NCBI GenBank assembly: GCA_965261545.1
Contig: CBDHDF010000011.1
Coordinates: 128,001-192,000, forward strand
Reading direction: 5' to 3'
Length of the DNA: 64,000 bases
From: Bdellovibrionales bacterium
Lineage (GTDB): Bacteria; Bdellovibrionota; Bdellovibrionia; Bdellovibrionales; UBA1609
In this document: in pieces, positions 4,059 through 25,470 of the stretch
How positions within the stretch are numbered: position 1 is the stretch's first letter
How the letters are laid out: every line of letters begins with the position of its first letter
Notes under the pieces: generated by a model
Databases searched by the model: none
Told to the model about the DNA's origin: nothing
Seen by the model: the letters and a program-made list of their open reading frames with translations, nothing else
Made by a program: the position numbers and the translations under genes

Positions 4059-4418
4059 ATGGAACAAGACAATATTTTAAAGCCAGCCAGAAAGGCCAGC
4101 AAAAAGAGTGACTCCTCTGCGATTCGCTTTCACAGGGACTTTATGAGAAAAGTCTCAAAACTTGTGGATAGGGCCAATAAGAAGTCCTTTGGGAAAACGA
4201 TGAGGCCCGGAGCCATCCTTGAGAATCTTCTTCATCTCGCTGACGACAAACTCTTGGAGGAGGTTGTCAAAAAGACGCAGGAGGATTCACTCTCACACAA
4301 TGACAAAAGAGAGGTTTTTCTAAGGGAAAAGCTCACCAAGTTCAATGGGTCTAAGGAGCAGCTAGAACTCAAGATGATGGAGGTTTTCGACCAGTATTTG
4401 TCACAAAATCAATCTTAA
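4059..4418 (+). CDS. Hypothetical basic protein
   Basis: 119 aa with AAGGAGG RBS; its 3' end recurs as a remnant at 18583 and 23731. Confidence 0.7.
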   Translation: MEQDNILKPARKASKKSDSSAIRFHRDFMRKVSKLVDRANKKSFGKTMRPGAILENLLHLADDKLLEEVVKKTQEDSLSHNDKREVFLREKLTKFNGSKEQLELKMMEVFDQYLSQNQS

Positions 4419-4502
4419 TTTTGTAGCAAAATGGACTCCTCATGGAGCCAATCTTTTCGATTTTGCTTAACTTATAACTTGTCTAACAAAGGAGTGATTG
4501 AT

Positions 4503-4775
4503 ATGATTATACGCAACTATCAAGAAAAAGATGGCAGGGATCAGAGTGTAAGTGACAAAATAAGTGATGGAACTTGCGACTCTGGTACGCTCTTTGACAA
4601 TTTAGCTTGGTTAACAACTAAAGAAACTGCACGCTACCTTCGCAAAAGCGTCAATGCCATCAGAATTTTGGTATATCGCAAAATTCTGAGAGCAAGAAAG
4701 TTTAGGCGAAGGCTGTATTTCAAAAGAGAAGAGTTGGATATGCTCATTGAAACCTCACAATTTATAGGAGGTTGA
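4503..4775 (+). CDS. Excisionase-like HTH_17 protein, copy 1 (long form)
   Basis: WLTTKETARYLRKSVNAIRILVYRK...LYFKREELD; AAGGAG RBS before ATG 4503; directly upstream of the integrase. Confidence 0.8.
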   Translation: MIIRNYQEKDGRDQSVSDKISDGTCDSGTLFDNLAWLTTKETARYLRKSVNAIRILVYRKILRARKFRRRLYFKREELDMLIETSQFIGG

Positions 4776-5519
4776 AAATGGCAATTTTAACTTATGAAAA
4801 AAATGGAAAACAGCTTTTTCGAGTCTATGTTCAGGGGCGAGGAAAAGTAGATACTTCTTTAAGGGTTCAAAAGAATAAATTCAATATAGAGACCTTTAAG
4901 GATGCGTGCAAAGAAGAGAAAAGGCTTATTAAATCTGTTTCAGATGAGATCAATAGGATCGAAGGACGAGGGTTGAAATGGAGGGATATCATTTATCGCT
5001 GGGAAACCTATGCTTTGCAAGGACTCCTCGGAGATAAACAAAAAGACCCCCATTACATCAAGGACCATGTCAACCGACTGATCCACTATACAAAGCCTTG
5101 GCTTGATTGTGTGGCTTCCGAACTCACTAAGGGGGATGGAAGACTTGTCTTGAGTCAGGCGAAAGAAAGTGGAAGCAAGGAAAGTCTACTGAAAAAAATC
5201 AAATCCTCTGTGAATGTAGTCTTCAAATGGGCGATTGAGGAAAAACTGGTTGTTGGTGTTCACTCAAGCCCTACTGAGGGGGTCAATGTTTCAGATAAGG
5301 TGGAGAAGGTTCCTAAGATTCTGACCTTAGAAGAGATTAAAACCCTTCTCAAAGGGGCTAAAGAAGAGCAGCATCCCTGGTATCATATTTGGTCTTTTGC
5401 ATTTCTTACTGGAATGAGAAGTGGCGAGTTGAAGGCACTACAGTGGAGGGATATTGATTTTGACCGACAAACAATATTGGTATCCAAGTCCTACAATCAT
5501 CGTAAGCAAGTGATAAAAT

Positions 5520-7240
5520 GGGTATATCCGAGTTTCTCAACAGAAAATGGGCCTAATTTCGACGTTGCAGAATTACCGCATTAAAAACCAAGAAAATAAT
5601 TCAATTTCCATGATTTATCCCCCTCATTACTTTACCCATAACAAAACCATGGTTTAATCTCTTAATTTACTTATTGGAAAATAATACAGGAGATGCCATG
5701 GTCTTGAATAAGTTTATTATAAAGATGTTGAAATTATCATTCTTAAAAGTGACTTGGGTTAAATTTAAAAATCGAAATCAAGAACTTCACTTAGGGGTTA
5801 AACCCCATAAGAATGGCTGCCGCTGTCCTCATTGTGGACGCCGCTGTAAGATACTTAGATGCTTAGAAGAAAGAGTGTGGCGAGATATCGTCGTGTGCGG
5901 TACCCCCATTTATTTCCATTATTCTCCGAAGGAAGTTCTGTGTCCCACTCATGGTCGTATTATGGAGAGAATTCCTTGGGCCGACCACTTCAGTCGAGTC
6001 ACCTATCGTCTGGAACTAACAATTCTGACCCTGACCAAGCAGATGACCCAAAAAGCCGTTTCAGAGCTTGTCAAGATACCCACATCCACCTTATCTGATC
6101 TTATTCATCGAATCATCCACAGGGAACGAGATGGTCACAAAATTCGTGGTTTGGAGGTCATTGGAGTCGATGAAATTTCTTATGCTAAGGGAAGGAAGTT
6201 TATTACCTTGATTTACGACATGAAGAAAGGCTGTGTCGTTTGGATTGGAAAAGGTAAGGGTAAGGAGACAATAGACTCCTTTTTTACAAAGGAACTCAGC
6301 CAATATCAGCGAGACAAAATTAGAGTGGCTTGTTGTGATATGGCTCAAGGCTACATCTCCTCTATCAAGGAGCATTGTAAGAATGCTACTCTCGTTTTGG
6401 ACAAATTTCACATTATTCAATCCCTCAACAGGGCTGTGGATGAGGTGAGAAAAGAAATTTGGAGAGATGCCTGCAAGAAGGACAGAAAGGCTATTAAGGG
6501 AACTCGCTGGTTGATAGCCTACAGTTCATCCTCTCGTAGTAAGGCCCAAACTCGTAAAATTAACCTCATGGAGAAATCTAACAATAAAATATTCAGAGCA
6601 TGGCTGCTTAAAGATAATTTTGAGCATTTCTGGGATTATGTGAGTCCAGGTCATGCTGCGAATTTTCTGAATGCCTGGATCACTCGTGCCTTAAGATCAC
6701 GCATTGATTCTATGAAAAAGTTTGCCTTGATGCTCAGGAAGCACCAAGAAAATATTCTTTCCTTCATTAAAGATCCTGTCACAAATGCCAAGGCTGAGGG
6801 AATCAATCGCCTTCTAAAGATCATAAAAAATCGGGCTTCAGGATTTAAGAACCTACAGGGTTTTGAGAATATGATTTACTTGTGTGCTGGGGATTTGGAT
6901 ATTGTTGGAAGTTTCCCCAAGCGTTTTTGTACATTATAGTTTTTATTGTCGATCAACATTTCTTTTTCCAATTCACCTCCCCATACTAACTCCGCCAAGA
7001 TGAGTCAGTTATCCACAGACTCATCCATGGCGACGCTGCGGCTATGGCCCTCGGAGCCACAATAAAGCAGCGCTGCTGTGGGTGAGTCTTGTGGATAACG
7101 GCGGCTCTCCACACAAGTGATTTGGTAGCCCTGTCCTCCGTGTTTTTATGTACAAATCTTAGGAATAACCTGTACATCCAGTTTTTAGCTATTTCCCTAG
7201 GGAATTTGGACTTTAGGCTCCGAGAAACTCGGATATAGCC
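5520..7240 (+). mobile_element. ISL3-family IS
   Basis: TIRs GGGTATATCCGAGTTTCTC / GAGAAACTCGGATATAGCC; 8-bp TSD GATAAAAT (5512-5519, 7241-7248). Confidence 0.93.
5698..6939 (+). CDS. ISL3 transposase
   Basis: CPHCG zinc finger, IGVDEIS, CCDM, LDKFH, TNAKAEGIN motifs. Confidence 0.93.
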   Translation: MVLNKFIIKMLKLSFLKVTWVKFKNRNQELHLGVKPHKNGCRCPHCGRRCKILRCLEERVWRDIVVCGTPIYFHYSPKEVLCPTHGRIMERIPWADHFSRVTYRLELTILTLTKQMTQKAVSELVKIPTSTLSDLIHRIIHRERDGHKIRGLEVIGVDEISYAKGRKFITLIYDMKKGCVVWIGKGKGKETIDSFFTKELSQYQRDKIRVACCDMAQGYISSIKEHCKNATLVLDKFHIIQSLNRAVDEVRKEIWRDACKKDRKAIKGTRWLIAYSSSSRSKAQTRKINLMEKSNNKIFRAWLLKDNFEHFWDYVSPGHAANFLNAWITRALRSRIDSMKKFALMLRKHQENILSFIKDPVTNAKAEGINRLLKIIKNRASGFKNLQGFENMIYLCAGDLDIVGSFPKRFCTL

Positions 7241-8170
7241 GATAAAATGCACTAAGGCTGGTTACTGGCGAAATGTTCCCATTTCCAATGACCTTCTGAG
7301 GATTATCACTGAGCTTCAAAAAGATGGTCACTCTGACCCTGAAGGCTTTGTGCTTCCAAGGCATGGGACGTGGACCAATGGTGAAGCTGGAAAGGTTTTG
7401 AGGACATTTTTAAAGAAGTATAGCATAAATCAGCATGTTGTATTTCATACGCTCAGGGCTTGCTTTGCGACTCACATGTTAGCTCAGGGGGTGAATCAAG
7501 CCACCGTTATGAAAATCGGTGGATGGAGAGACATTAAGACTTTCCAGATTTACGTTCGGCTCGCTGGGGTTGAGGTCAAAGGTGCAACAGATGTTTTGCA
7601 AGTGATTCCAGCACTTGATTCTCTTGTTTCTAAAGATAATGTGATCGGCTTTCCTTGGCACAAGGCTAAGGGCTCTCGGATATGAAATAGTAAAATAATT
7701 ATACACGATAAATCAATTTGTGGGGCCTTGAAAACAGTTCTTGGGTTGACCTAAGTAGGTTAGTTTAGAGTTCCGTTTACAGGCGCAAAGTCCTAACAAC
7801 AAGTGTTGTGGCATGATTTCTCCTTTGCCGATAAAATTAAGACTTGACAAAAAAAATGGAGGTGACTGTGCGCACATAAAATCTGTAGGAAAAGCCGTAG
7901 CAAGGAGTGTCATGTCAACACAATTCTAAACTATTGCAGTCAAATGTATTCCAAGTGTTATGATGTGCCCTCACCTCAGGCTTCTGGGACATTCTAAGGG
8001 ACTGGCGATTGCTCACAGTGGCCCTGGAGCCGACAAAACTCCGATAGATTCATTAATATGACCCATTTTGAAACATTTTACTTGGAATGTGCTTGAAAAT
8101 AGGCTAAAGTATGTCTTTAAAATGTCCGAAATATGGTTTATAATAGGTTTATGGAGGATAGAGGATATTC

Positions 8171-8572
8171 ATGGTTGATCCACAAACTATTTTTAACAAC
8201 CTGCCCCCAGAGTCTTCTCCCTTTTGGAATGAGCAATCTCGGAGTCTGGATTACCAACGAATTGCTAAAGACTTTTTTGATGTGGCAGATAGGAAAGAGA
8301 AGATAAGCCAAATCCTTGGTGTAAGTAAAAGCTCTGTACGGTATGACCGTAAGATGCCAAGGGAGGTAAAGGAGTTGTTGCAAGATACTGTAACCATTTT
8401 TCACTTGGTCTATACTCATTTTGGCGAGGATTTTGATAAAACAAAACTTTGGTTTGAACTACCTAACCCTATGATCGGAGAAAACATCACCCCACAACAG
8501 ATGATTTATATTGGGCGACAGCAAAAACTCCTTCAAATTGTTTTTGCAGCGACTCAAGGTGACCGACCCTAG
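8171..8572 (+). CDS. Xre/MbcA/ParS-type antitoxin
   Basis: HTH-like ISQILGVSKSSV plus C-terminal WFELPNPMIG..ITP motif; coupled to the RES gene. Confidence 0.8.
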   Translation: MVDPQTIFNNLPPESSPFWNEQSRSLDYQRIAKDFFDVADRKEKISQILGVSKSSVRYDRKMPREVKELLQDTVTIFHLVYTHFGEDFDKTKLWFELPNPMIGENITPQQMIYIGRQQKLLQIVFAATQGDRP

Positions 8573-9462
8573 TGAGAAGAAAAACGCTACCAATAGGAAG
8601 TTCCGATCCAGAAGTTATGAACCTAGTTCAATCTTCCGATTCAACAAAACAGATTAAAGAAAAGATTGCATTTAAGTACAAGTTTTATTCCGAACTTGTT
8701 CAAAAGAGGTCTGTACTTCAGAAAGAAATCAAAGCATCTCTTGTGTCAAAAATACAAGTGTTTCCTTTTAATGACTGGTGGAGGTTAACTACAACGAAGT
8801 ACTCCATGGACCCTATAAATGCTAGTGGGAGTTACAAAAATCCAATTGGAGGACGCTTCAATGTTGGGCAGATTGATACGACGAATACTGATAAATTCGT
8901 TACATTTCCAGCCCTTTACTTGGCAAAAACAAAGCAAACAGCTATAAAAGAAGTATATCCTCCAATAAAAAAGAAATGCTCACTTTCATCAATGGAGTTG
9001 ATGTTATCTAGCAAAGAGGCAAATGCTTTCTTTAAGGTGAGAGGAGAGGTCCGTGTCTTGGATATTGATAGCCCCAACAATCTAACTGCTTTTGTAAAGG
9101 TCATTAAAAAAATAACGATTGACGCTGACACTGAAAAGGAGGCTCTTAGGCTATCAGAACCTAACCCTCAGACAGTACAAACAGTGAAGGAGCTTAAAAG
9201 GGCTCTATATTCTACTAATTGGAAAAACTTCATAAGTATTTATGATGACCCTCCTCCTTCGCAAATTTTTGGGCAAATTGTAAGGTCTTCTGGAATTGAG
9301 GGGTTATTATACTCATCAATTCATTCTCAAAATAAGCATGATTGTAAGTGCTTAGCTTTATTCTTAGAAAACTTTGAAGACTCGGCTTCTTTTGTAGAAG
9401 TGATTGATTCTGACATTAGCAAAAAAAGAATAGATCAGAACACGTTTAAAGAATTCTTCTAA
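8572..9462 (+). CDS. RES-domain toxin
   Basis: GGRFN, PALYLA...TAIKEV, SQIFG and IEGLLYSS motifs. Confidence 0.82.
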   Translation: MRRKTLPIGSSDPEVMNLVQSSDSTKQIKEKIAFKYKFYSELVQKRSVLQKEIKASLVSKIQVFPFNDWWRLTTTKYSMDPINASGSYKNPIGGRFNVGQIDTTNTDKFVTFPALYLAKTKQTAIKEVYPPIKKKCSLSSMELMLSSKEANAFFKVRGEVRVLDIDSPNNLTAFVKVIKKITIDADTEKEALRLSEPNPQTVQTVKELKRALYSTNWKNFISIYDDPPPSQIFGQIVRSSGIEGLLYSSIHSQNKHDCKCLALFLENFEDSASFVEVIDSDISKKRIDQNTFKEFF

Positions 9463-9749
9463 AAAGTAGAATGGCAAAGACTCTGGGTGAGTTACTAGAA
9501 ATCCTGCATATGCAGGTTGGAACTGGCTAAATCATTGAGATCACTATGAAAATATTGGATTAAAAGGAAGACTTTGGATTTAGAACGCAATCGAATGGCC
9601 GTCTACCAAGTTTGGGTATGATTGACTCCATGGAGCCAATTACTTCGATCTTTCTTAACTTGTCGCTGTCGCGAAATTAAAAAGGGCCGTTTATGTGCCC
9701 TCATTTGGACTTGGGCTCTGAAGTAGCCTCTTTTTAACTTTCCCTTGTT

Positions 9750-11147
9750 CTACCCACCCTTGAAGCTTGGAGTTGGCATCGTCACCGCTAAATTTCTCAT
9801 AATTTGGTGCAGATTGAACCCCATGGTCGAGCGATACCCCGAAGCCAGTGTGGCCCCATCCCCTTTCATCTTGCTTCTTGCTAATCCAAAGTTTTTGACA
9901 TGCCCTATGAGAGGTTCGACCCCCGACCTGCGATTGTATAATTCTTCTTTCTGGGGGGCTTCGACCTGTTCTTTTACGTTGGCAGGTCTTTGAATTCCAT
10001 CTGCATTTCCCACAACATCTTTGACGAGATTGACGTTGGCTTGTGAATAATACCCCTTGTCTGTTGTAACTGACTCTAAAATATCTTCGCCAAATATTTT
10101 TTGATGTTCTTCCAATATAGCTGGCAATGACTCCTTGTCGTCCATTCTCACAGAAGTGCAAGTATAGGGAACAATAAAATTTCCACCAATCCGCCCGACT
10201 TGGAAGACCCTCCCAAACTCCTTGTCTTTGCCTAACTTCCCCTTTTTGATACAGGCGACCGCACACAATTTGAAGGCAAGGATTTTGCCAGGCTTGATGG
10301 TGTGAGTTCTTACAAAATGGGCCACGTCCAAAAGGTATCTCCAAGCCTTGTCTCTCACTTCTGTGACGGCTTCTCGGTGGTTCCAAGGAAGACTCGCTAG
10401 AGCCTGTGGAGAAAGATTTTCTGCAAACCTTATAAAGGCTTTTAACTCTGACTTTACAAGACTGTGAAGGTCTGAAAATACCTCCCTCTTCTTCTCTAAT
10501 ACACAATTTTTGGCTAGAAAAAAATACTTTCGAGCGGCCTTGATGATGGCTTTGATATCTATGGTTATACCCGATGGTAAGTAGGTCTTCTGCTTTTCTT
10601 GAAGATACGAAAGAATTTTGTAACACTTCTGAGCCAACTTTTTCAAAAGACTGGCATCGGAGGGATAAGCCATATTGGCTTCCTGAACGGTCGAATCGAC
10701 ATCCAAATGAGAGGCGTCTGCAAACCCCAGGGATTGAGCCAAGCGAAGAATATAATCTCCTATTTCTTTGTGAGTCTCTTCCGTCAGTCGATTGCGAAAT
10801 TTTTCTATTTTCGTATGATCGGGACAACACCATTTTTTGAGGATATTTAGACCACAAAAAAGCTGATAACTGGCCGTTTCTTTTATCCGTTGCTCCACCC
10901 CTCGATCCGTGAGTTTGAATAGAACCTGAAGCAGCAGCACGGCTAGATGAACTCTTAAAAAGAGCTTTCTTCCTAGCCACCAAAAACCCTTTGCAGTCGT
11001 GGCTTTTAAGTCGGGCATGACCAGACACGACAGATAGCTCCAATCGACGTGGTTGGCCAGTTGAATCAGAGGATCGGATTCTGTGACGATAATAGATACC
11101 TTGGCAGGGTGGACCTTGGTTTCGAGGCCTTCTGGGCATAAACTCAT
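9750..11147 (-). CDS. DDE transposase (ISNCY/IS5-like)
   Basis: PDHTKI, DVDSTVQE, EFG, TDKGY, RSGVEPLIGH motifs. Confidence 0.88.
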   Translation of the reverse strand: MSLCPEGLETKVHPAKVSIIVTESDPLIQLANHVDWSYLSCLVMPDLKATTAKGFWWLGRKLFLRVHLAVLLLQVLFKLTDRGVEQRIKETASYQLFCGLNILKKWCCPDHTKIEKFRNRLTEETHKEIGDYILRLAQSLGFADASHLDVDSTVQEANMAYPSDASLLKKLAQKCYKILSYLQEKQKTYLPSGITIDIKAIIKAARKYFFLAKNCVLEKKREVFSDLHSLVKSELKAFIRFAENLSPQALASLPWNHREAVTEVRDKAWRYLLDVAHFVRTHTIKPGKILAFKLCAVACIKKGKLGKDKEFGRVFQVGRIGGNFIVPYTCTSVRMDDKESLPAILEEHQKIFGEDILESVTTDKGYYSQANVNLVKDVVGNADGIQRPANVKEQVEAPQKEELYNRRSGVEPLIGHVKNFGLARSKMKGDGATLASGYRSTMGFNLHQIMRNLAVTMPTPSFKGG

Positions 11148-11203
11148 AGCGATAATCCTTTATCATGAGGTGAAACATGGTAATAAGGTTAACAGGAGGC
11201 CCA

Positions 11204-11644
11204 ATGAAAAAGAAGCAAATCATTCAACCAAGAAGGAAAGAACTTGAAAAGGCTATTAGTGATTTTTGTGACCAATATATAAACGATGAGTATAAAAACC
11301 TCTGTCACGGTGTAGTAGCAAGAATGTCTCGAAAAAGACAAGTCCCTTACATGACAGGAAGAGTAGAAATTTGGGCTGCGGGGATTATTCATGCCATTGG
11401 GAGAATTAACTTTCTTTATGATAGCAAGACGTCACCATATGTTTCCATGGATGAGATTGTTGAGCACTTCAACACATCAAAAAGGACAGTGGGGCCAAAA
11501 GCAAAAATCATCATGGATATGTGTAAAATGAACCATTTTGACCCAGAATTCTCTACTCGCTATCTTCAGGAGAGGAGTCCATTTAAAAATCTTATGCAAA
11601 TTGAAAATTATATTTATCAAAAAGACCACCTTGAAGCTGAATGA
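11204..11644 (+). CDS. IS passenger protein (DUF6398-like)
   Basis: WAAGIIHAIGRINFLYD...PY motif; AGGAGG RBS; inside the TIRs of both copies. Confidence 0.7.
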   Translation: MKKKQIIQPRRKELEKAISDFCDQYINDEYKNLCHGVVARMSRKRQVPYMTGRVEIWAAGIIHAIGRINFLYDSKTSPYVSMDEIVEHFNTSKRTVGPKAKIIMDMCKMNHFDPEFSTRYLQERSPFKNLMQIENYIYQKDHLEAE

Positions 11645-11808
11645 TGGATTTCTTAAGTCTATTTCGCGACAGCGACTAACTTATAACTTGTCTAACAAAA
11701 GAGTGATTGATATGGTTATACGCAACTGTCAAGAAGGAAGGTGGCAGGGGTCAGAGTGTAAGTTACAAAATAAGTCACGAAACAAGTGACGGAACTTGCA
11801 ACCCTGGT

Positions 11809-12012
11809 ATGCTCTTTGAAAATTTAGCTTGGTTAACAACTGAAGAAACTGCACGCTATCTTCGCAAAAGCGTCAATGCCATCAGAATTTTGGTATATCG
11901 CAGAATTTTGAGAGCAAGAAAGTTTAGGCGAAGGCTGTATTTTAAAAGAGAAGAGTTGGAGATGCTCATTGAAACCTCACAACATATGGGAGGTTACAAA
12001 TGGCAATTTTAA
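11809..12012 (+). CDS. Excisionase-like HTH protein, copy 2 (short form)
   Basis: Near-identical core to copy 1; overlaps the integrase start. Confidence 0.75.
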   Translation: MLFENLAWLTTEETARYLRKSVNAIRILVYRRILRARKFRRRLYFKREELEMLIETSQHMGGYKWQF

Positions 12013-13166
12013 CTTATGAAAAAAATGGAAAACAGCTTTTCCGAGTCTATGTTCAGGGGCGAGGAAAGGTAGACACTTCTATAAGGGTCCAAAAGAATAA
12101 ATTTAATATAGAGACTCTTAAGGATGCGTGCAAAGAAGAGAAAAGGCTTATTAGAGCTGTTTCAGATGAGATCAATAAGATCGAAGGACGAGGGCTGAAA
12201 TGGAGGGATATCATTTATCGCTGGGAAACCTATGCTTTGCAAGGACTTCTCGGAGATAAACAAAAAGACCCCCATTACATCAAGGACCATGTAAACCGAC
12301 TGCTCCATTATACAAAGCTTTGGCTTGACTGCGTGGCTTCCGAACTCACTAAGGGGGATGGAAGACTTGTCTTGAGTCAGGCGAAAGAAAGTGGAGGCAA
12401 GGAAGGTTCACTAAAAAAAATCAAATCCTCTGTAAATGTAGTCTTCAAGTGGGCTATTGAGGAAAAGCTGGTCGTTGGTGTTCACTCAAGCCCTACTGAG
12501 GGAGTTAATGTTTCAGACAAGGCGGAGAAGGTTCCTAAGATTCTCACCTTAGAAGAGATTAAAACTCTTCTCAAAGGAGCTAAAGAAGAGCAGCATCCTT
12601 GGTATCATATTTGGTCTTTTGCATTTCTTACTGGAATGAGAAGTGGCGAATTGAAGGCATTGCAGTGGAAGGATATTGATTTTGACCGACAAACAATATT
12701 GGTCTCCAAGTCCTACAGCCATCGCAAGCGAGTGATAAAGTGCACCAAAGCTGGTCACTGGCGAAATGTACCCATTTCCAATGACCTTCTGAAGATCATC
12801 ACTGAACTTCAGAGAGATAGTCATTGTGACCCTGAAGGCTTTGTCCTTCCAAGACATGGGACATGGACCAATGGTGAAGCCGGAAAGGTTTTGAGGACAT
12901 TCCTAAAGAAATATAACATAAATCAGCATGTTGTATTTCATACACTCAGAGCCTGTTTTGCGACCCATATGTTGGCTCAAGGGGTCAATCAGGCCACCGT
13001 TATGAAAATTGGTGGATGGAGAGATATTAAGACTTTCCAAATCTACGTTCGGCTCGGTGGGATTGAGGTCAAAGGTGCAACAGAGGTTTTGCAAGTGATT
13101 CCAACCCTTGACTCTCTCGCTCCTAAAGACAATGTAATCGGCTTTCCTTGGCACAAGGGCATATGA
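12000..13166 (+). CDS. Tyrosine integrase copy 2 (intact)
   Basis: R (TGMRSGE), K (CTKAG), HTLR, W (GGW) and Y (FQIY) catalytic residues present. Confidence 0.93.
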   Translation: MAILTYEKNGKQLFRVYVQGRGKVDTSIRVQKNKFNIETLKDACKEEKRLIRAVSDEINKIEGRGLKWRDIIYRWETYALQGLLGDKQKDPHYIKDHVNRLLHYTKLWLDCVASELTKGDGRLVLSQAKESGGKEGSLKKIKSSVNVVFKWAIEEKLVVGVHSSPTEGVNVSDKAEKVPKILTLEEIKTLLKGAKEEQHPWYHIWSFAFLTGMRSGELKALQWKDIDFDRQTILVSKSYSHRKRVIKCTKAGHWRNVPISNDLLKIITELQRDSHCDPEGFVLPRHGTWTNGEAGKVLRTFLKKYNINQHVVFHTLRACFATHMLAQGVNQATVMKIGGWRDIKTFQIYVRLGGIEVKGATEVLQVIPTLDSLAPKDNVIGFPWHKGI

Positions 13167-13887: not shown

Positions 13888-14115
13888 ATGGAAAATATCG
13901 ATATCACTTTAATTTCTAGAATATGTACAATCTTATCTTTTCCGATAGCTCTCTTATCTTTTCTGATAGCCCTCTTATCCCACTGTACTTCAAGAAAAAA
14001 TAAAAGAGATATTGTAAACATAAAAAGCTCTATAAAGAACATAGACAGCTCAGCAACTAATATCTCAGTTCGTGGAAATAAGAATACTACAGCAGGAAGA
14101 AATATTGATGAATAA
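13888..14115 (+). CDS. Small single-TM protein with N/G/T-rich C-terminal tail; first gene of the ABC-3C operon
   Basis: TAAGGA RBS before ATG 13888; hydrophobic ICTILSFPIALLSFLIALLS; stop overlaps next ATG by 8 nt. Confidence 0.7.
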   Translation: MENIDITLISRICTILSFPIALLSFLIALLSHCTSRKNKRDIVNIKSSIKNIDSSATNISVRGNKNTTAGRNIDE

Positions 14116-16570: not shown

Positions 16571-16613
16571 CTTGATAAGGATGTGTGAAAGAATAACTTG
16601 AACGATTAAATCA

Positions 16614-18430
16614 GGGACTGTAAAAATAATTGTGTAACTGCAATTTTTTTCTTAAATCTTAAAGCCACTTATGTGGCTCCACTCCTGGTAAAAAGCACAG
16701 CCCCATATTATTCGTCAATGTATAATTGACATTTTTTCCTTCAAGCGATTTTGTCAGTCACAATGCATTATAATTTAATGGGGAGATGGAGCCGTAATGG
16801 GATCATATCAGAACTGGAAAGAACTCAAATAAATAATTATCATCTTGGTTGGAAAAAAATCAGCAATAGCTCTCTCAAAAAAATGGAAATTCCAATCTCA
16901 TCAAAGGGTTCATGTGTTTAGGTTCCCATACTATATTACCCCCTTTTTTTTATTTTTTTTAACTTGTGATATTCGAGAAATACCAGCATTGGGATGAAAT
17001 ATGAAAAAAAATGGAAACCCAAGTCTGCACCAAGAGGGCATGTATTTAGGTTCCCATACTATATTACCCTAACCATAGTCTCGTATTCCAGCATTTCTCA
17101 ACGCCTTAGAGGGCTTTTAAGCCCTCTTATAAGGGGACCTTATTTATTAAAAAACTTAGTTGTCAAAACGGTCACCGTATTCAATGGCAAACCTGTTCAT
17201 GGCTGGCTTCCAGTTGTGTAATGGTCGTGTCCATCGCTTAGAGGCCATTTTTATCGCTAAATATACAACTTTTAAAGCCGACCGATCACTGGGAAATATC
17301 TTACGATTTCTGATCGCCTTGCGGATCACGCTATTTAACGACTCTATGGCGTTTGTGGTATAAAAAATCTTTCTGATTTCATCCGGATAATCGAAAATAG
17401 TGATGAGATTGTCCCAATTCCTACGCCAAGACTTTTCAATATTCGGATACTTTGAAGACCACTTGGTACAAAATTCCTCAAGGGCCTTTTCAGCTTCTGT
17501 CAGAGTCGTAGAGCCATAAATGGACTTGAGGTCTTGGGCGACAGCTTTCATATCCTTGGAAGGAACATAGCGAAGGGAATTGCGGACCATATGGACAATG
17601 CACAGTTGCCTTTAGACTTGGGAAAAGCCGCTGAAATGGCTTGAGGAAAACCTGTAAGACCATCTACAGAAAATATAAATACGTCTTTCAACCCTCGATT
17701 TTGCAGCTCAGTCAAAACACTCAACCAAAACTTTGAACCCTCATTTTCAGAAATCCATAGGCCCAACAAGTCTTTCTGACCCTCCTCTGTAATACCAAGA
17801 GCTAGGTAAATCGCCTTATTAATAACTCTCTTGTCTTGATGGACCTTCACCACGATACAGTCCAAAAATACGATAGGGTAAGTGCTATCCAAGGGGCGGT
17901 TCTGCCAAGCCGTAACTTCATCAATAACAGCATCCGTCACGTTGGCTATCACTGAGTGGGATATCTCTGCACCATGGTAGAGGTCTTTGATAGCTCCTTG
18001 AATATCCCTGGTCGTCATTCCCCTCGCATAGAGGGTCAGAATACTGTCTTCAAAGCCCTCAAGACGAGTCTTGCCTTTGGGAATGACTTGGGGCTCAAAG
18101 GAGGCACTTCGGTCACGGGGGACCTGAAGCTCCACCTCGCCTTTCTCTCCCTTTATGGTCTTTCTACTGTAACCATTGCGAGTGTTGGATTTGCGGGTCT
18201 CAGACTTCTCATGCCTCTCATAACCTAGGTGATCGTCCATTTCCGCATTAAGAGCTGTCTCTAAAACAACCTTCATCAGTTGACCCGTTATGTCGGATAA
18301 ATCTTTTTGGGTCTTGACGTTCTTCGCTAGTTCCTTGCCTATTGTCTTGATATCCATTTTGCCTTCTCCTTTCAGGATGATAGTTCATCCTAATATGATT
18401 CGGCAGTTACACAAAATAGTTTACAGGCTC
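16614..18430 (-). mobile_element. IS256-family IS (defective)
   Basis: TIRs GGGACTGTAAAAATAATTGTGTAACTGC / GCAGTTACACAAAATAGTTTACAGGCTC; flanks do not form a TSD. Confidence 0.88.
17156..18357 (-). pseudogene. IS256 transposase, frameshifted near 17610
   Basis: RNGY, VPRDR and DGLTGF in one frame; QLCIVHMVRN and YTTNAIES in the next. Confidence 0.88.
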
Positions 18431-18795
18431 CATATTGAATCCACCCACGGACAGAGAATGAACATCTCTGTCAACTTTGCAGATATGGAGTTTTGGGGTA
18501 CACTCAAAACCCGAGATTCGTAATCCCATGATGAACTATAGTTTACCTGTCCATAGCTGGGCCGTTTTTAGTTCCACATCGCTTCAATCAGTATTTGTCA
18601 CAAAATCAGTCTTAATTTTGTGGAAATTGGCCTCTCTCATGGAGTCAATTTTTTAGATCTTTCTTAACTTATGACTTGTCTAACAAAGGAGTGATTGATA
18701 TGGTTATACGCAACTGTCAAGAAGGAAGATGGCAGGGATCAGGGTGTAAGTTAAAAATTAAGTCACGAGATAAGTAACGAACTTGCGACTCTGAT

Positions 18796-18999
18796 ATGCT
18801 CTTTGACAATTTAGCTTGGTTAACAACTGAAGAAACTGCACGCTATCTTCGCAAAAGCGTCAATGCCATCAGGATTTTGGTATATCGCAAAATTCTGAGA
18901 GCAAGGAAGTTTAGGCGAAGGCTGTATTTCAAAAGAGAAGAGTTGGAGATGCTCATTGAAACCTCACAACATATGGGAGGTTACAAATGGCAATTTTAA
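18796..18999 (+). CDS. Excisionase-like HTH protein, copy 3
   Basis: Near-identical to copies 2 and 4. Confidence 0.75.
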   Translation: MLFDNLAWLTTEETARYLRKSVNAIRILVYRKILRARKFRRRLYFKREELEMLIETSQHMGGYKWQF

Positions 19000-20150
19000 C
19001 TTATGAAAAAAATGGAAAACAGCTTTTCCGAGTCTATGTTCAGGGGCGAGGAAAGGTAGACACTTCTATAAGGGTCCAAAAGAATAAATTTAATATAGAG
19101 ACTCTTAAGGATGCGTGCAAAGAAGAGAAAAGGCTTATTAGAGCTGTTTCAGATGAGATCAATAAGATCGAAGGACGAGGGCTGAAATGGAGGGATATCA
19201 TTTATCGCTGGGAAACCTATGCTTTGCAAGGACTTCTCGGAGATAAACAAAAAGACCCCCATTACATCAAGGACCATGTAAACCGACTGCTCCATTATAC
19301 AAAGCTTTGGCTTGACTGCGTGGCTTCCGAACTCACTAAGGGGGATGGAAGACTTGTCTTGAGTCAGGCGAAAGAAAGTGGAGGCAAGGAAGGTTCACTA
19401 AAAAAAATCAAATCCTCTGTAAATGTAGTCTTCAAGTGGGCTATTGAGGAAAAGCTGGTCGTTGGTGTTCACTCAAGCCCTACTGAGGGAGTTAATGTTT
19501 CAGACAAGGCGGAGAAGGTTCCTAAGATTCTCACCTTAGAAGAGATTAAAACTCTTCTCAAAGGAGCTAAAGAAGAGCAGCATCCTTGGTATCATATTTG
19601 GTCTTTTGCATTTCTTACTGGAATGAGAAGTGGCGAATTGAAGGCATTGCAGTGGAAGGATATTGATTTTGATCGACAAACAATATTGGTCTCCAAGTCC
19701 TACAGCCATCGTAAGCGAGTGATAAAATGCACTAAAGCTGGTTACTGGCGAAACGTACCCATTTCCAGTGACCTTTTGAAGATTATCACCGAGCTTCAGA
19801 AAGATGGTCACTGTGACCCTGAAGGCTTTGTCCTTCCAAGGCATGGGACATGGACCAATGGTGAAGCTGGAAAGGTTTTGAGAGCATTTCTAAAGAAATA
19901 TAACATAAATCAACATGTTGTATTTCACACACTCAGGGCTTGCTTTGCGACTCACATGTTAGCTCATGGGGTAAATCAAGCCACCGTTATGAAAATCGGT
20001 GGCTGGAGAGACATTAAGACTTTCCAGATCTACCTTCGGCTTGCTGGGGTTGAGGTCAAAGGCGCAACAGAGGTGTTGCAAGTGATTCCAACTATTGACT
20101 CTCTCGTTCCTAAAAACAATGTGATCGACTTTCCTTTGGCGCAAGGTTAA
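18987..20150 (+). CDS. Tyrosine integrase copy 3 (intact)
   Basis: All catalytic motifs present; one amino-acid difference seen versus copy 4. Confidence 0.93.
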   Translation: MAILTYEKNGKQLFRVYVQGRGKVDTSIRVQKNKFNIETLKDACKEEKRLIRAVSDEINKIEGRGLKWRDIIYRWETYALQGLLGDKQKDPHYIKDHVNRLLHYTKLWLDCVASELTKGDGRLVLSQAKESGGKEGSLKKIKSSVNVVFKWAIEEKLVVGVHSSPTEGVNVSDKAEKVPKILTLEEIKTLLKGAKEEQHPWYHIWSFAFLTGMRSGELKALQWKDIDFDRQTILVSKSYSHRKRVIKCTKAGYWRNVPISSDLLKIITELQKDGHCDPEGFVLPRHGTWTNGEAGKVLRAFLKKYNINQHVVFHTLRACFATHMLAHGVNQATVMKIGGWRDIKTFQIYLRLAGVEVKGATEVLQVIPTIDSLVPKNNVIDFPLAQG

Positions 20151-20572
20151 GAACATCTATGAAACAGTAAAATAATTCTTCAGTTGAGAGGTGCCTTTGG
20201 CATTTCTCAACATTTCTTAAATTTGCTAATCATTGCTAAATAGGTTTGTATAACCTATTGAAATTATTGGATATTCGGAGATTTTTATTCTCCGCTCCAA
20301 TAACAATGGGCAGGAACTTGAACCTCACCCATACTATCCTGTTCTCTACGAAAATCCATAAAGCTCTCCTCCATTTTTTCAGTCAGAATAATCACCGGGC
20401 AATACTTAAGTACAAAAACTAAATACGGAGAGAGGGGTGGCTTTCGCCACGCTCCGCGGGCTCAGCCTTTCCCTCTCCTTCCTTCTTGCCTTGTGCCCAG
20501 CCTGACGGCTGGCATGCTGAGGCTCGCTTCGCTTCGCCTGGAAAAGGGTAAAAGTGTAAAAGGGCAAAGGGG

Positions 20573-22438
20573 TTACATAGGCGTCCTCACAAGGCGGAAA
20601 CCGACACCGTACCAGCGAAAATCAGGCCGATCGAAGGAACGATAGGAAGAGCGCAGGAAGCGAGCGCCGTCGTCCCAACCGCCACCACGCATAACACGGG
20701 TAGAGCCATTTTTCGGACCTCTAGGGTCTGTGACAGGACCAAAATCATACCAAGGTTTAGAATACTCCTCCTCCTCATACCAATCTTCGACCCACTCCCA
20801 CACATTTCCATGAACATCATAAAGCCCTAGGGGATTGGAGCTCAACAATGCCACGGACCTTGATTGTCGGCTTTGTTTGCCAGATCCAGAGTTCCCCCTA
20901 TACCAACCATAGTTTTTAAGTTCTGAAGGATTGTCACCAAAGGAATAGGCTGTTTTTGTGCCTGCTTTTGCACCACCCCTGGCTGCAAATTCCCACTCCG
21001 CTTCCGTAGGCAAACGGTATTCATATTTGTCACCGTGGGACTCTCTCGCCCTGCGATTGTACTCATTTATAAATTCTTGGACGTCCTCCCAAGACACTCT
21101 CTCCACAGGATGATCGGCGCACATTGAAACTCCATCTTGTTCCATATAACTTTCTGGGCAATGCTCTTTTTCTTGGAATTTTGAAGGATTTGTCCCCATC
21201 ACAACAAACCACTGCCATTGAGTCACCTCTGTGGTGCTTATTTCAAAGGGCTTAGAAATTGTTACTTTATGAGGGGTCTCATCTGAATCTCGACCTTTTT
21301 CAGTCTTAGGGCTCCCCATGGTGAAAGAACCTGCGGACACGGGGACAAAACCATATTGAGACAAGCTTCGTCTCACATAGGCTCTCAACACACTGTATTC
21401 AATACCTGTTTTGTCTTTTGAATAAAGACGTGTATTCATCCGAGGGCTTCCTATCACTTCATCCACCAAGCTTTCAATGACTCCGTTAAGAACTCTCACG
21501 GCAGAAGCAAACTCCTGCTTGCTGTCAATTTTTGAGTCAAGTTCTTCAAGGTTTTTTCTTAAGGCAGCTAATTGTTTTATAAGAGATCCTGCATTTTCTT
21601 CTCCATAGGCGTCTATGAACTTTTCTATGCCTGAGACCTTTTCCTTGGCCTCATCTCTTTGTCGAACGAGGTCATGGACACTGGGAGCTTCCATGCCCTC
21701 TTTATAGGCTTTGACCTGCCGAGCCTCTTTGGGACTTAGGGTAGGAAGCTCATTAACTCTTAGCACGGATTGAAGGCGACGCTTAAAGTCACTCACGGGG
21801 ACTTTTTTTATAAGTGCACCATCGGGCCGCTGGCAATCACTCACCTCATTTATAACAGAACCCACTTCACACTCTTGGATCACAATCTTATCTTCTCCTT
21901 GGTGGCTTTTTTCTTTATAAAATAAAATCACATCACCATCGGGGCCTACAAGATTCACAGAAGAGGGCCTTCTTTTGTCACCCCTCTTATCACTATCACC
22001 TCTTTTCGTACCATGAGGACGAGATCCACGAGGTCCGCTGTGGGAACCATGGCCACCATGGGAACTATAATGACCTTGGAAGCCAGATCCATGGGGTAAC
22101 TGGAGTCGGCCTCCTGATTTTAGGGTGATTCGCCTCATCTTTTCTTCATGCTTACGAACCACAGCCTTGTAGGAGGCGGTACGGTCTTCTGGTGTAGATG
22201 ATGTAGATAGAGGTAGAGGTGCAGGTAGAGGTGCAGAAGAGTCCCTTGATGGATTTGTATGATTCTGATTCTGGTTCTGATTCAGACCTTTGTCTTGACT
22301 CTCTCGGCTCTCTTTGCCCTCTTGGCTCACTCGGCCCTCTTTGCTCAAAAAGGCACATGAAGGCAGAACCATCAACAGTGACAATAACCACAAAAGCAAT
22401 AAAGGTCTCATGGACCTTATGGGTTTCATTCCTTTCAT
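20573..22438 (-). CDS. Lipoprotein with C-terminal FGE-sulfatase (CLec-fold) domain; candidate DGR target
   Basis: Signal peptide ending LMVLPSC; FTMGSP, EVTQ, HPVERVSW, RLPTEAEWEFAARGG, GLYDVHGNVWEW, RGGGW, GFRLV; AAAGGAG RBS before ATG 22438. Confidence 0.88.
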   Translation of the reverse strand: MKGMKPIRSMRPLLLLWLLSLLMVLPSCAFLSKEGRVSQEGKESRESQDKGLNQNQNQNHTNPSRDSSAPLPAPLPLSTSSTPEDRTASYKAVVRKHEEKMRRITLKSGGRLQLPHGSGFQGHYSSHGGHGSHSGPRGSRPHGTKRGDSDKRGDKRRPSSVNLVGPDGDVILFYKEKSHQGEDKIVIQECEVGSVINEVSDCQRPDGALIKKVPVSDFKRRLQSVLRVNELPTLSPKEARQVKAYKEGMEAPSVHDLVRQRDEAKEKVSGIEKFIDAYGEENAGSLIKQLAALRKNLEELDSKIDSKQEFASAVRVLNGVIESLVDEVIGSPRMNTRLYSKDKTGIEYSVLRAYVRRSLSQYGFVPVSAGSFTMGSPKTEKGRDSDETPHKVTISKPFEISTTEVTQWQWFVVMGTNPSKFQEKEHCPESYMEQDGVSMCADHPVERVSWEDVQEFINEYNRRARESHGDKYEYRLPTEAEWEFAARGGAKAGTKTAYSFGDNPSELKNYGWYRGNSGSGKQSRQSRSVALLSSNPLGLYDVHGNVWEWVEDWYEEEEYSKPWYDFGPVTDPRGPKNGSTRVMRGGGWDDGARFLRSSYRSFDRPDFRWYGVGFRLVRTPM

Positions 22439-22655
22439 TTTTTGATCTCCTTTCATTTTTTGCTTTGGCGGCACTTTACTTAACTCTTGCCCTCTTTAGC
22501 CATTGACTTGAAGCCATAAACTCACCCACTATCTGAACAACCTTAGCCTCATTGACTCAAGCCTACCTACTTGACTTTACTTATGTCACTGAGTGATTGT
22601 CGATACAAAATAGTACAAACTTGAATTCCTAGACTTTGCGAGGACTCCACTGACA

Positions 22656-23634
22656 TTGCCACCAAAGAAAACCTCAGAAAAAAGAAAACAACAGTCTCAG
22701 TCCCATAATGCTCTATTCAATGAAACTTTCCTGAATGAGAGATATTGCCTAGACATTTTCCGTCTTGTCTTGACGACACAGGAGTTTAAGCTCTTTAACT
22801 GGAAAACTCTCAAACCAGAAATAACTGTCTTTACAGATGAAGAGGGCAATGAGCGGCGCATTGACCTTTTATTCTCAGTTCAAGTCAAGGGGTCCCAAAA
22901 ACGGGTACGTCTTTTTTTTCTGCTCGAACACAAAAGTCATCAGGATTCTCAAGTTCTCCAACAAATTCTGAGGTACCAGACCCTTGTTTACAATCGCTGG
23001 AATTATCCGGTCATTCCCATACTGGTCTATCACGGACGACAAAAACACTGGAGTAAAATCACGAAATGGTCCCCTGAATTTTCAAGACTCTCTGGATGGA
23101 CTCACTCCCGTTTTAAGACAAAAATTTGGGAAAAATATCCTCAATTTTCGTTGTAAGTTGTTGAATATCCATGATATAAACCTTTACCGTGGAGTTGGCA
23201 GAAATTTGCTTTCTAGGCCGATTTTGCTTATAATGAGTAGTATCTGGAAGCTTCGCCATGAGACCATTGTGGAGCTGTTTCAGATGGGTACAAACTTGGG
23301 TGAGAAGGATCAAAAGTTCCTTATTCAAAAGGCGGTGGATTATATCCACCGAAACGATTCAAATTTCACGCTAAGTGTGCTCAGTAAGATTGAAAAAGAA
23401 AGTATCGAGGAGGAGCAAAGAGTTATGTCAGCATTGCAATGTTCTTTGGATGAAGCTGAGGAAAAGGGAATGAGAAAGGGCCTTAAGAAGGGCCGTGAAG
23501 AGGGTATTAAGGGCATTAAAAAGAGCCGCGAAGAAACAGCGTTACGAATGATTCAAAATGGCTTTGAGGCAAAAACGATTTGTCTATGTACTGGGCTTAC
23601 TTCCAAAGAAGTGAAGGAACTCTCAGAAAAATGA
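22656..23634 (+). pseudogene. Rpn-family PD-(D/E)XK nuclease (YhgA-like), frameshifted near 23050-23070
   Basis: HNALF, RIDLLFSV, LLEHKS, PVIPILVYHG in frame 1; EKGMRKG..EEG..CTGL C-terminus in frame 2. Confidence 0.82.
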
Positions 23635-23957
23635 CAAAAACTCCTTAAATGCTCTAAAAACACTATTTCAGAATTTCCCTTGTTCATAACTCAAAAGGAA
23701 ATCCCTTCTGTTGCTGGCTTCTTCAAATGAAGGTTTTCGATCAGTATTTGTCACAAAATCCATTTTATATTTTGTGGCAAATCGGCTTCCCATGTGCTCT
23801 TCATGGAGCTAATTCTTTCGATTTTTCTTAACTTATAACTTGTCTAGTAAAGAAGTGATTGATATTATTGCAAACAACTGCCAGGAAGAAGATGGCAGGG
23901 ATCAGAGTGTAAGTTAAAAATAAGTCACGAGATAAGTAACGGACTTGCGACTTTGAT

Positions 23958-24161
23958 ATGCTCTTTGACAATTTAGCTTGGTTAACAACTGAAGAAACTG
24001 CACGCTATCTTCGCAAAAGCGTTAATGCCATCAGGATTCTGGTATATCGCAGAATTTTGAGGGCAAGAAAGTTTAGGCGAAGGCTGTATTTCAAAAGAGA
24101 AGAGTTGGATATGCTCATTGAAACCTCACAACATATGGGAGGTTACAAATGGCAATTTTAA
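23958..24161 (+). CDS. Excisionase-like HTH protein, copy 4
   Basis: Near-identical to copies 2 and 3. Confidence 0.75.
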   Translation: MLFDNLAWLTTEETARYLRKSVNAIRILVYRRILRARKFRRRLYFKREELDMLIETSQHMGGYKWQF

Positions 24162-25312
24162 CTTATGAAAAAAATGGAAAACAGCTTTTCCGAGTCTATG
24201 TTCAGGGGCGAGGAAAGGTAGACACTTCTATAAGGGTCCAAAAGAATAAATTTAATATAGAGACTCTTAAGGATGCGTGCAAAGAAGAGAAAAGGCTTAT
24301 TAGAGCTGTTTCAGATGAGATCAATAAGATCGAAGGACGAGGGCTGAAATGGAGGGATGTCATTTATCGCTGGGAAACCTATGCTTTGCAAGGACTTCTC
24401 GGAGATAAACAAAAAGACCCCCATTACATCAAGGACCATGTAAACCGACTGCTCCATTATACAAAGCTTTGGCTTGACTGCGTGGCTTCCGAACTCACTA
24501 AGGGGGATGGAAGACTTGTCTTGAGTCAGGCGAAAGAAAGTGGAGGCAAGGAAGGTTCACTAAAAAAAATCAAATCCTCTGTAAATGTAGTCTTCAAGTG
24601 GGCTATTGAGGAAAAGCTGGTCGTTGGTGTTCACTCAAGCCCTACTGAGGGAGTTAATGTTTCAGACAAGGCGGAGAAGGTTCCTAAGATTCTCACCTTA
24701 GAAGAGATTAAAACTCTTCTCAAAGGAGCTAAAGAAGAGCAGCATCCTTGGTATCATATTTGGTCTTTTGCATTTCTTACTGGAATGAGAAGTGGCGAAT
24801 TGAAGGCATTGCAGTGGAAGGATATTGATTTTGATCGACAAACAATATTGGTCTCCAAGTCCTACAGCCATCGTAAGCGAGTGATAAAATGCACTAAAGC
24901 TGGTTACTGGCGAAACGTACCCATTTCCAGTGACCTTTTGAAGATTATCACCGAGCTTCAGAAAGATGGTCACTGTGACCCTGAAGGCTTTGTCCTTCCA
25001 AGGCATGGGACATGGACCAATGGTGAAGCTGGAAAGGTTTTGAGAGCATTTCTAAAGAAATATAACATAAATCAACATGTTGTATTTCACACACTCAGGG
25101 CTTGCTTTGCGACTCACATGTTAGCTCATGGGGTAAATCAAGCCACCGTTATGAAAATCGGTGGCTGGAGAGACATTAAGACTTTCCAGATCTACCTTCG
25201 GCTTGCTGGGGTTGAGGTCAAAGGCGCAACAGAGGTGTTGCAAGTGATTCCAACTATTGACTCTCTCGTTCCTAAAAACAATGTGATCGACTTTCCTTTG
25301 GCGCAAGGTTAA
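24149..25312 (+). CDS. Tyrosine integrase copy 4 (intact)
   Basis: All catalytic motifs present; nearly identical to copy 3. Confidence 0.93.
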   Translation: MAILTYEKNGKQLFRVYVQGRGKVDTSIRVQKNKFNIETLKDACKEEKRLIRAVSDEINKIEGRGLKWRDVIYRWETYALQGLLGDKQKDPHYIKDHVNRLLHYTKLWLDCVASELTKGDGRLVLSQAKESGGKEGSLKKIKSSVNVVFKWAIEEKLVVGVHSSPTEGVNVSDKAEKVPKILTLEEIKTLLKGAKEEQHPWYHIWSFAFLTGMRSGELKALQWKDIDFDRQTILVSKSYSHRKRVIKCTKAGYWRNVPISSDLLKIITELQKDGHCDPEGFVLPRHGTWTNGEAGKVLRAFLKKYNINQHVVFHTLRACFATHMLAHGVNQATVMKIGGWRDIKTFQIYLRLAGVEVKGATEVLQVIPTIDSLVPKNNVIDFPLAQG

Positions 25313-25470
25313 GAACATCTATGAAACAGTAAAATAATTCTTCAGTTGAGAGGTGCCTTTGGCATTTCTCAACATTTCTTAAATTTGCTAATCATTGCTA
25401 AATAGGTTTGTATAACCTATTGAAATTATTGGATATTCGGAGATTTTTATTCTCCACCTCCATAACAATG

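Follow-up and report, generated by a model that had tools for sequence, protein, structure and literature searches.

Four stacked xis-int modules as the right arm of a decayed integrative and conjugative element in a Bdellovibrionales genome

How do four closely similar integrase modules come to stand in a row, each separated from the next by different genes? The question is raised by a window of 64,000 nucleotides (C11:128001-192000 of the Bdellovibrionales genome G000, which is 4.3 Mb in size and rich in insertion sequences, IS), where each module carries an excisionase-like gene (xis) and a tyrosine integrase gene (int). Unless a contig is named, coordinates refer to this window. The initial annotation regarded each cassette as an integrative unit of its own in an integron-like array. 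We find instead that the four modules are the right arm of one 33-kb decayed integrative and conjugative element (ICE), not four free cassettes.

Modules, ends and backbone of the element

There are four direct repeats on the + strand, as had been claimed from the sequence. A self-BLAST comparison aligns them pairwise at 87-97% identity, with E-values from 1e-161 to 0, over the spans 4377-5520 plus 7241-7700, about 9626-9661 plus 11677-13276, 18583-20308 and 23727-25470. Each module (M1 to M4, Table 1) contains an HTH_17 (helix-turn-helix, HTH) region that is xis-like and a PF00589 integrase, and the integrases of M2, M3 and M4 are full length with the catalytic motifs. The length of about 1.7 kb given for every module holds for M3 and M4 and fails for M1 and M2, which are split by IS elements. 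The proposed derivation from a mobilisable element is correct in that the modules are copies of this element's own right end. M3 and M4 do begin with a 3' remnant of g4059, the gene that precedes xis, and the motif CAGTATTTGTCACAAAAT is found at 4392, 18589 and 23742. The starts of M3, M4 and the modules designated B949 and G061b cluster within about 11 bp near the g4059 stop codon. An AT-rich inverted repeat, ACAAAAT-(8-9 nt)-ATTTTGT, overlaps this stop at 4402-4423, 18599-18620 and 23752-23774; it is kept in M1, M3 and M4, and may act as an operator and as a limit on module start sites.

The element has a single left end, which is located with its HTH gene at C11:120444, 7.56 kb upstream of the window and directly after a tRNA-Cys gene (3' end C11:120443). 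No match to a left end, to the HTH gene or to an internal attI was found between the modules in the window, and no tRNA gene was found inside the 64 kb, the anchor tRNA being upstream. At the other extremity, the attR core of M4, CCACCTCCA, is the last 9 nt of this same tRNA-Cys; among 3000 random 241-bp windows, 3.4% contain a match this long or longer to any of 35 tRNA ends. The mobile unit extends from the tRNA-Cys left end to the right end of M4, and the view of each cassette as a separate integrative unit is not supported. The attR core of M3, TCCGCTCCA, is a tRNA-Gly 3' end, and the tail of M1 is shortened and lacks a tRNA-like core. Right ends of this family generally stop at a tRNA-like NCCA some 110-200 bp past int. 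The conserved left end with its HTH gene follows tRNA-Cys, -His, -Gly and -Asp genes in G000, where the left end also follows tRNA-Gln, and tRNA-Pro, -Ala and -His genes in relatives. CCA is encoded by 35 of the 36 tRNA genes of G000, which fits an integrase family that uses CCA ends.

Copies of M4 on contigs C2 and C5 are identical and lose their similarity at the same base. On C2, the copy lies within an IS, with one half of the IS on either side, which confirms that mini-elements of cargo plus xis-int exist and have moved. Likewise, the 5' half of the IS4-type element that follows M4 is joined on C8 to an identical left end, and for two IS insertions of the unit running from left end to M4, joining the halves restores the target exactly. 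The right end of M3 sits within a gene that we take from its sequence to be fumC, and an intact fumC with the empty site is present on contig C7. These secondary targets (IS4, the other IS and fumC) share only CA or CCA with the element, and at all three the left junction retains target bases and the right junction element bases. From these junctions, we infer that the integrase tolerates mismatches and needs about 2 bp of identity, in the manner of IntDOT. Its closest named records come from Bdellovibrionales, Bdellovibrionaceae, Bacteriovoracaceae and Oligoflexia genomes, and a PDB search returned only distant integrases of the XerD/XerA/IntI type (seven sequences). A GGAGA-N7-TCTCC inverted repeat was considered as the recombination core and rejected, as crossovers fall some 7 nt beyond it and it is missing from other family members.

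The window copy includes a PF00589 integrase, att direct repeats at a chromosomal target and a relaxase with mobC, all of which are features of ICEs. All five copies of g4059 in the genome follow a relaxase, and its Atlas clusters consist of Bdellovibrionota hypothetical proteins. The remnant upstream of mobC corresponds to amino acids 407-571 of a 571-amino-acid gene in the intact ICE at C11:961-962 kb; we take it to be TraG-like, and it has no Pfam match. No match to VirB4/TraC or to a coupling protein was found between the element's ends, the rest of the transfer region being deleted. Three sister elements retain this region, followed by mobC, relaxase, g4059, xis and int, and the C11 sister ICE encodes TraC/VirB4 and a coupling protein as judged by Pfam. 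Because its own type IV secretion system and coupling protein are gone and are present in sister ICEs, the window copy is a decayed ICE that resembles an integrative and mobilisable element (IME). Terminator-like signals near mobC number 12 versus 3.8 expected, several of them overlapping, and a promoter scan gave results at chance level.

Judged from their alignments, the modules are recombinant mosaics, as expected from the homologous recombination that had been proposed to occur within the repeats. Between M3 and M4, leader and xis show 36 differences over 404 sites and int and tail show 1 over 1307; the integrase genes of M2 and M3 differ at none of 596 sites and then at 51 of 568. Three integrase subfamilies coexist, with 78-100% identity within and 57-64% between them. 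Each stack consists of a single subfamily, which is A in the window and at C10:54 kb and B in the ICEs at tRNA-Gly and tRNA-Asp; the copies are kin, hence this homogeneity carries no P value.

There is also a pattern in the genes that are damaged. An xis start linked to a ribosome-binding site is in frame in 13 of 13 modules adjoining g4059, some of them near-duplicates. Among modules without g4059, xis is damaged in 10 of 12 and int is full length in 8 of 11 checked. N-terminal frameshifts or start losses affect M2, M3, M4 and C10b (M2 is frameshifted and M3 carries a stop in the N-terminal part, and M4 has lost its start codon), and six others have nonsense mutations or frameshifts in the HTH region. 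Of the six independent lesions counted by eye, five hit xis (P 0.002 by length); counting IS insertions as well gives 5 of 10 (P 0.04), and the bias is confounded by gene conversion of int. Only M1 keeps a full xis in the window array, and its int is broken. Three of the four proximal modules in G000 stacks lack a convincing tRNA-like core. At C11:956.2 kb, about 140 bp past the proximal int of the Gly ICE and at the expected right-end position, is what we presume from its motif to be a group II intron-like 5' end.

The same plan, with one left end, modules of the same subfamily and a last core that equals the anchor tRNA, is found in two more ICEs of G000 and in genome G061. The last-module core matches the anchor over 7 nt in the Gly ICE, 8 nt in the Asp ICE and 8 nt in the Pro element of G061. 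After the proximal int, the Gly and Asp ICEs carry defence cargo (a Septu-like PtuAB, a methylase-Z1-ATPase set and, further on, a dCTP deaminase) and then further xis-int modules, and the comparison of loci confirms that cargo differs between them. The G061 array starts with tRNA-Pro and a left end with HTH gene, which are followed by Rpn, by an int that IS21 has truncated and that ends in GAGCCA, and by an HNH-ABC pair; its second module is 99.4-99.6% identical, has its start within the final codons of the array's own g4059 and terminates with the Pro core. The sequence TTCTCGCTCCA, once considered as the right end of the Asp-ICE modules, has been superseded by an Asp-matching core at +112.

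Assembled contigs are available from four sequencing runs (X1 to X4) of one sample, which is possibly the source sample, so that they are not independent of the assembly; results from them refer to the contigs listed. In one X3 contig, the left end found after M4 on C5 stands directly against tRNA-Cys. As read from this junction, the contig is a tRNA-Cys site without the window element, which was either excised or never there.

Growth of the array and competing explanations

We consider it somewhat probable (roughly 0.55) that the array is the right arm of one decayed ICE that grew by rounds of cargo capture, each adding a copy of the right end. This is favoured because one left end with its HTH gene is located at tRNA-Cys and none within the window, and because the M4 core equals the tRNA-Cys end, the Gly, Asp and G061 Pro elements being alike in this respect. 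It is also favoured because the right end of M3 joins the fumC fragment (fumC'), after which FGE and Rpn follow in host order, and because the modules are mosaics, Xre-RES is 94% identical across ICEs and stacks never mix subfamilies. Further support comes from the independent G061 array, the empty tRNA-Cys site in X3 and the pattern of damage in xis and int.

Growth of this kind would begin with Int inserting the element at a secondary CCA beside the future cargo, as at fumC. An illegitimate joint would then connect the far side of the cargo to the leader just upstream of xis, to give the order xis-int-attR, cargo, xis-int-attR. RecA-type recombination within the 1.7-kb repeats would move such units between copies of the same subfamily and stack them, and the composite would excise in one piece, bounded by the single left end and the outermost right end. 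Homologous recombination, and not Int, would be what removes or exchanges any cargo flanked by two right ends. In the proximal module xis is retained and the right end tends to be lost; in distal modules int and the right end are retained and full-length xis tends to be lost, and the latter loss would stabilise the cargo. Secondary-site insertion and exchange can be read from the junctions and mosaics, whereas we infer the cargo-to-leader joint and the pattern of excision.

Several observations weigh against this account. The mechanism of the cargo-to-leader joint is hypothetical, and a cryptic attachment site there finds no support: a profile built from 15 distinct left ends scores a candidate attL at the 3' end of g4059 at 0-2.6 versus mostly 6-10 for true ends, and random 26-nt windows do as well in 34-76% of cases. 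The right end of M2 is uncertain (about 13301 or 13330). The IS256-family element before M3 is without a target duplication and is followed by about 150 bp of unique DNA, and therefore a deletion there is likely. In M2 to M4, an internal ATG precedes an uninterrupted reading frame for the 66-codon HTH core of xis, and thus a short Xis may be made. Among further stand-alone modules without g4059 in other genomes, xis is kept in 4 of 5, so that distal loss may reflect redundancy rather than selection. The remaining proximal tail, that of the Gly ICE, is ambiguous, and the 85 bp between Rpn and M4 differ from the C7 flank. No circles, circle junctions or in-array deletions were seen among the run contigs of the one sample. 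By target reconstruction, the left end at tRNA-Cys has its partner in the right end on C5, and the window right end has its partner in the left end on C8; this disagrees with the assembled pairing and points to recombination between copies or to a mis-join, which affects the location of the array and not its inner junctions.

Finally, near-identical stacks are uncommon in the genomes searched, where one other genome has them and elsewhere only tandems of divergent integrases were found. There are 18 matches to the family integrase in G000 versus 0-4 in each of 60 relatives, 28 of which have one at 1e-40 and none of which has a close same-strand pair. A scan of the class gave matches in 102 of 332 genomes, with at most five candidates scored per genome and six matches unlisted. 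Sixty class genomes, chosen for having a match and for better contiguity, were rescored in full, and same-strand pairs within 16 kb occur in four of them, none near-identical (best 72%). Among five genomes reached via loci, close pairs occur in G061, G062 and G063, and only those of G061 are near-identical. The tandems at G062:C7:133-145 kb and on G063:C51 consist of divergent integrases with TIR (ThsB) and AbiE cargo, as in ordinary accretion.

A stronger form of the capture account strikes us as possible, if doubtful. It holds that Bdellovibrionota ICEs with a mismatch-tolerant integrase aimed at CCA ends possess a ratchet, in which every secondary insertion is followed by a joint at a hot spot located at the g4059 3' end and adds cargo plus a new xis-int-attR; that the repeats serve as homology adaptors through which ICEs of one subfamily swap defence cassettes; and that selection splits xis from the right end. 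Under such selection, the module under mob-operon control may retain xis, and the distal modules without xis may retain the recombination end.

Alternatively, complete mini-elements might have been inserted by Int in or beside one another and their internal ends lost later, through recombination between left-end repeats or through IS deletion. Mini-elements of this sort do exist (the C2 copy, a tRNA-His element and tRNA-Ala elements in G043, G054 and G232). In addition, attI-type junctions (right end, core, left end) occur at three other places in G000, right-end/left-end junctions occur five times in G061 and G232, and the distal leaders of subfamily A are more alike than the proximal ones. 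Accretion followed by deletion is also established, as described in an excerpt of PMC5704250. However, a left-end or HTH remnant is missing at all three internal junctions, and promiscuous CCA targeting should mix subfamilies, whereas the stacks are homogeneous. Moreover, fumC-FGE-Rpn would already have to be in place as captured DNA when a second element struck it precisely. We therefore regard this route as unlikely, though worth serious consideration.

It is improbable that the order of segments is partly an assembly artefact, with real units of different loci or strains joined through repeats of an IS-rich, metagenome-derived genome. Such joining would be eased where M4 is identical over its whole length to the C2 and C5 copies, and left and right ends are indeed cross-paired among C11, C8 and C5. 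An X2 contig carries M4 followed by the C5 left end, and no contig among those listed bridges the M4-IS4 or the C8 junction or spans the whole stretch. Yet M1 to M3 differ in sequence and have unique flanks, the junction of M3 with fumC' is bridged by contigs of X3 and X4, and that of Rpn with M4 is present in difference-free contigs of X1, X2 and X3. Furthermore, the M1-cargo-M2 arrangement is repeated on C10, and the architecture recurs in G061.

The least credible explanation is the integron-like one, in which each cargo with its xis-int pair is an autonomous cassette shuffled by its own integrase: three integrases are intact with catalytic motifs, boundaries cluster at the g4059 3' end (M3, M4, B949 and G061b) and the FGE-Rpn-M4 unit has moved to new sites, but it moved with a canonical left end and HTH gene, the left-end profile (n=15) fails to set the g4059 site apart (P 0.34-0.76), xis is damaged in distal modules and the integrase scores 73 bits against the integron-integrase model TIGR02249, whose cut-off is 265.

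Cargo and neighbouring features

The cargo families that had been named from the sequence alone are recovered by Pfam, namely RES for the first cargo, CTD10 (weak), MC6 and DUF2326/AAA_23 for the second, and FGE-sulfatase and Transposase_31 for the third. The description of the cargo as mostly defence is overstated at this locus, where FGE-Rpn is captured host-type DNA with a frameshifted Rpn and the ABC-3C operon has no detected effector domain.

The Xre open reading frame (ORF) of the first cargo has no Pfam match, whereas its G061 homologue, which is 26% identical, has one. The C10 ICE, too, is followed by Xre-RES and the M2 leader, with 94% nucleotide identity versus 78-79% for mobC and relaxase. 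The second cargo matches PDC-M68B and LmuB in PADLOC, and the CTD10 match of its first gene is below the Pfam cut-off. No effector domain was found, nor a tblastn match to the HNH effector of G061, and there is no long ORF upstream in the three + frames.

The third cargo is not dedicated defence; it is captured host-type DNA because the right end of M3 sits inside fumC, and fumC', FGE and Rpn occur in the same order on C7 at 94.8% identity over 2909 bp. Rpn is split in the window into ORFs of 166 and 216 amino acids, and the C2 and C5 copies are intact (321 amino acids). There are 21 Rpn matches in the genome and 8 FGE matches at about 7 loci. FGE-Rpn pairs recur on C2, C4 and C7, and some 17 Rpn paralogues lie within 100 kb at C2:279-381 kb, several in close tandem and with variable C-termini; G061 also carries Rpn genes within its ICEs. 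Rpn proteins can be anti-phage, as toxin-antitoxin systems whose full-length ORF holds an internal start for the antitoxin, according to an excerpt of PMC10327210. The sequence at 20420-20540, between fumC' and FGE, is GC-rich and palindromic, resembling a repetitive extragenic palindrome.

The stretch 18431-18520, between the IS256-family element and M3, is a probable 3' remnant (about 29 codons) of another gene and is unique in the genome, which suggests a deleted cargo. The ISL3 element in int1 has 16 near-full copies in the genome. The leader of M2 is fused to an IS21 remnant and interrupted by a 2017-bp IS (9662-11678). The region 25463-64000 is a dense nest of IS elements (IS21 and IS4/IS5-like DDE), within which a large serine recombinase (49054-51114) and a Fic gene (52342-53334) are located. 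A paralogue pair at 34660-37397 is 68% identical and has no Pfam matches.

Two loci elsewhere in G000 also involve this family. On contig C5, an ICE arm 98.5% identical to that of C10 is followed by 6.6 kb that duplicate host genes of C10:658-665 kb and, after these, by a truncated FGE-Rpn-M4 and the left end of a second element. This contig may represent a strain variant or a further composite that has captured host DNA. At C2:695809-696555, downstream of an AbiE pair, the N-terminal 117 amino acids of a family integrase are fused to a region 32% identical to the window ORF at 7-402.

Table 1. Features of the element and of its neighbourhood in the window
Feature	Position	Strand	Remarks
Transfer-cluster last-gene remnant, C-terminal 165 aa	719..1294	+	96% identical to ICE copy, C11:961-962 kb
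mobC (NikA-like relaxosome accessory)	1680..2033	+	PF21983, PF05713
MOB-P relaxase, full length	2014..3915	+	PF03432; NF041450 below cut-off
g4059, 119-aa conserved gene preceding xis in family ICEs	4059..4418	+	5 genome copies
Module 1 (M1), ICE-proximal	4377..7765	+	xis 4503-4775 intact; int 4778-7685 split by ISL3
ISL3 inside int1, 1720 bp	5521..7240	+	duplicated target GATAAAATG
Cargo 1: Xre-like antitoxin and RES toxin	8171..9462	+	RES by Pfam
Module 2 (M2)	9626..13330	+	leader split by IS; int 12000-13166 intact
Cargo 2: ABC-3C / Lamassu-like operon	14072..16570	+	CTD10-only first gene, MC6, DUF2326/AAA_23 ABC ATPase
IS256-family element	16614..18431	-	between ABC-3C and M3; no target duplication
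Module 3 (M3)	18583..20299	+	g4059 3' remnant; int 18987-20150 intact; core 20291-20299
First 21 codons of fumC (presumed)	20297..20359	-	cut by M3 right end at CCA
Cargo 3: FGE-sulfatase gene (-) and frameshifted Rpn (+)	20573..23634	.	FGE-sulfatase, Transposase_31 (Pfam)
Module 4 (M4), terminal	23727..25462	+	g4059 3' remnant; int 24149-25312 intact; core 25454-25462
IS4-type element, 3' half	25463..26370	+	cut at TTTGCCCA; 5' half on C8

Comparison with known systems

Integrons are defined by a single integrase IntI, by attI/attC sites, with attC hairpins after promoterless cassettes, and by a promoter-cassette design. The window resembles them in having an array of variable, often defence-type cargo; however, it has no IntI and apparently no attI/attC or promoter-cassette design, and a recombinase gene stands at every junction, in four copies. 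Its cargo junctions are explained by right-end cores and leaders.

The published systems considered below are described from excerpts of the cited sources. In the translocatable-unit arrays of IS26, as in the window, unique cargo is located between direct copies of a recombinase module, and the unit is cargo plus one copy (PMC4196232). IS26 employs an IS6-family DDE enzyme in a targeted conservative reaction (PMC4196232), whereas the window repeat is a tyrosine-integrase xis-int-attR segment for which homologous recombination is proposed. By analogy, the window array would work like an IS26-type array without being a member of that class. RecA-type recombination between related ICEs likewise gives hybrids and deletions in the SXT/R391 family, whose tandems at prfC are of whole ICEs (PMC5812530), whereas only the 1.7-kb right end is repeated here.

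For IntDOT of CTnDOT, a shared dinucleotide is enough and coupling sequences are variable (PMC2817482). Mismatched overlaps are tolerated by IntDOT and by Tn916 Int (PMC2817482, PMC5812530); the window integrase may tolerate them too, to judge from its junctions. The shared dinucleotide of the window family differs in being the CA of the tRNA CCA, and its preferred targets are at least seven different tRNA genes. Pipolins are also tRNA-anchored reservoirs of defence genes with more than one tyrosine recombinase (PMC11551731); they have piPolB and two unrelated integrase families, neither of which was seen in the window element. No replication or helper-interference genes of phage satellites (P4, PICI or PLE) were found by a Pfam scan of the 51 window proteins. 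A survey of att-delimited islands reports one intact recombinase in 82% of them (bioRxiv 10.64898/2026.01.13.699239).

The ingredients of the array, namely accretion, hybrid ICEs and relaxed integrases, are already known, and two IS-rich genomes are the only ones in which the pattern is seen. The array suggests a concrete way in which ICEs could gain and exchange defence cargo without an integron or IS26, their own right end serving as the repeat. The junction cores (Cys, Gly, Asp and Pro) record earlier insertion sites, making the history readable, and an integrase that would accept many tRNA CCA ends with about 2 bp of identity is a clear biochemical target. In a literature search, subscription papers apart, neither this ICE family nor stacked right ends were found to be described.

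The closest relatives of the array are the composite islands of ICEs, IMEs and cis-mobilisable elements (CIMEs), which arise by site-specific accretion and deletion (ICESt1/ICESt3 and IME_Sag2603_tRNAlys; PMC5704250, PMC5812530). Like the window element, they are tRNA-anchored composites with decayed partners in cis; they can excise with alternative ends, as the window element may, and an internal attL' of ICESt1 gives a shorter element (PMC5704250, PMC5812530). Their partners have their own att pairs and meet at attI, whereas the window element has one left end and no internal attI. The integrases of their partners are usually lost or unrelated (<30% identity in S. agalactiae), whereas the window holds four xis-int modules of the same subfamily. 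Thus, the window element is not an integron and belongs with the composite ICEs that form by accretion, deletion and hybrid formation, as an unreported variant of them.

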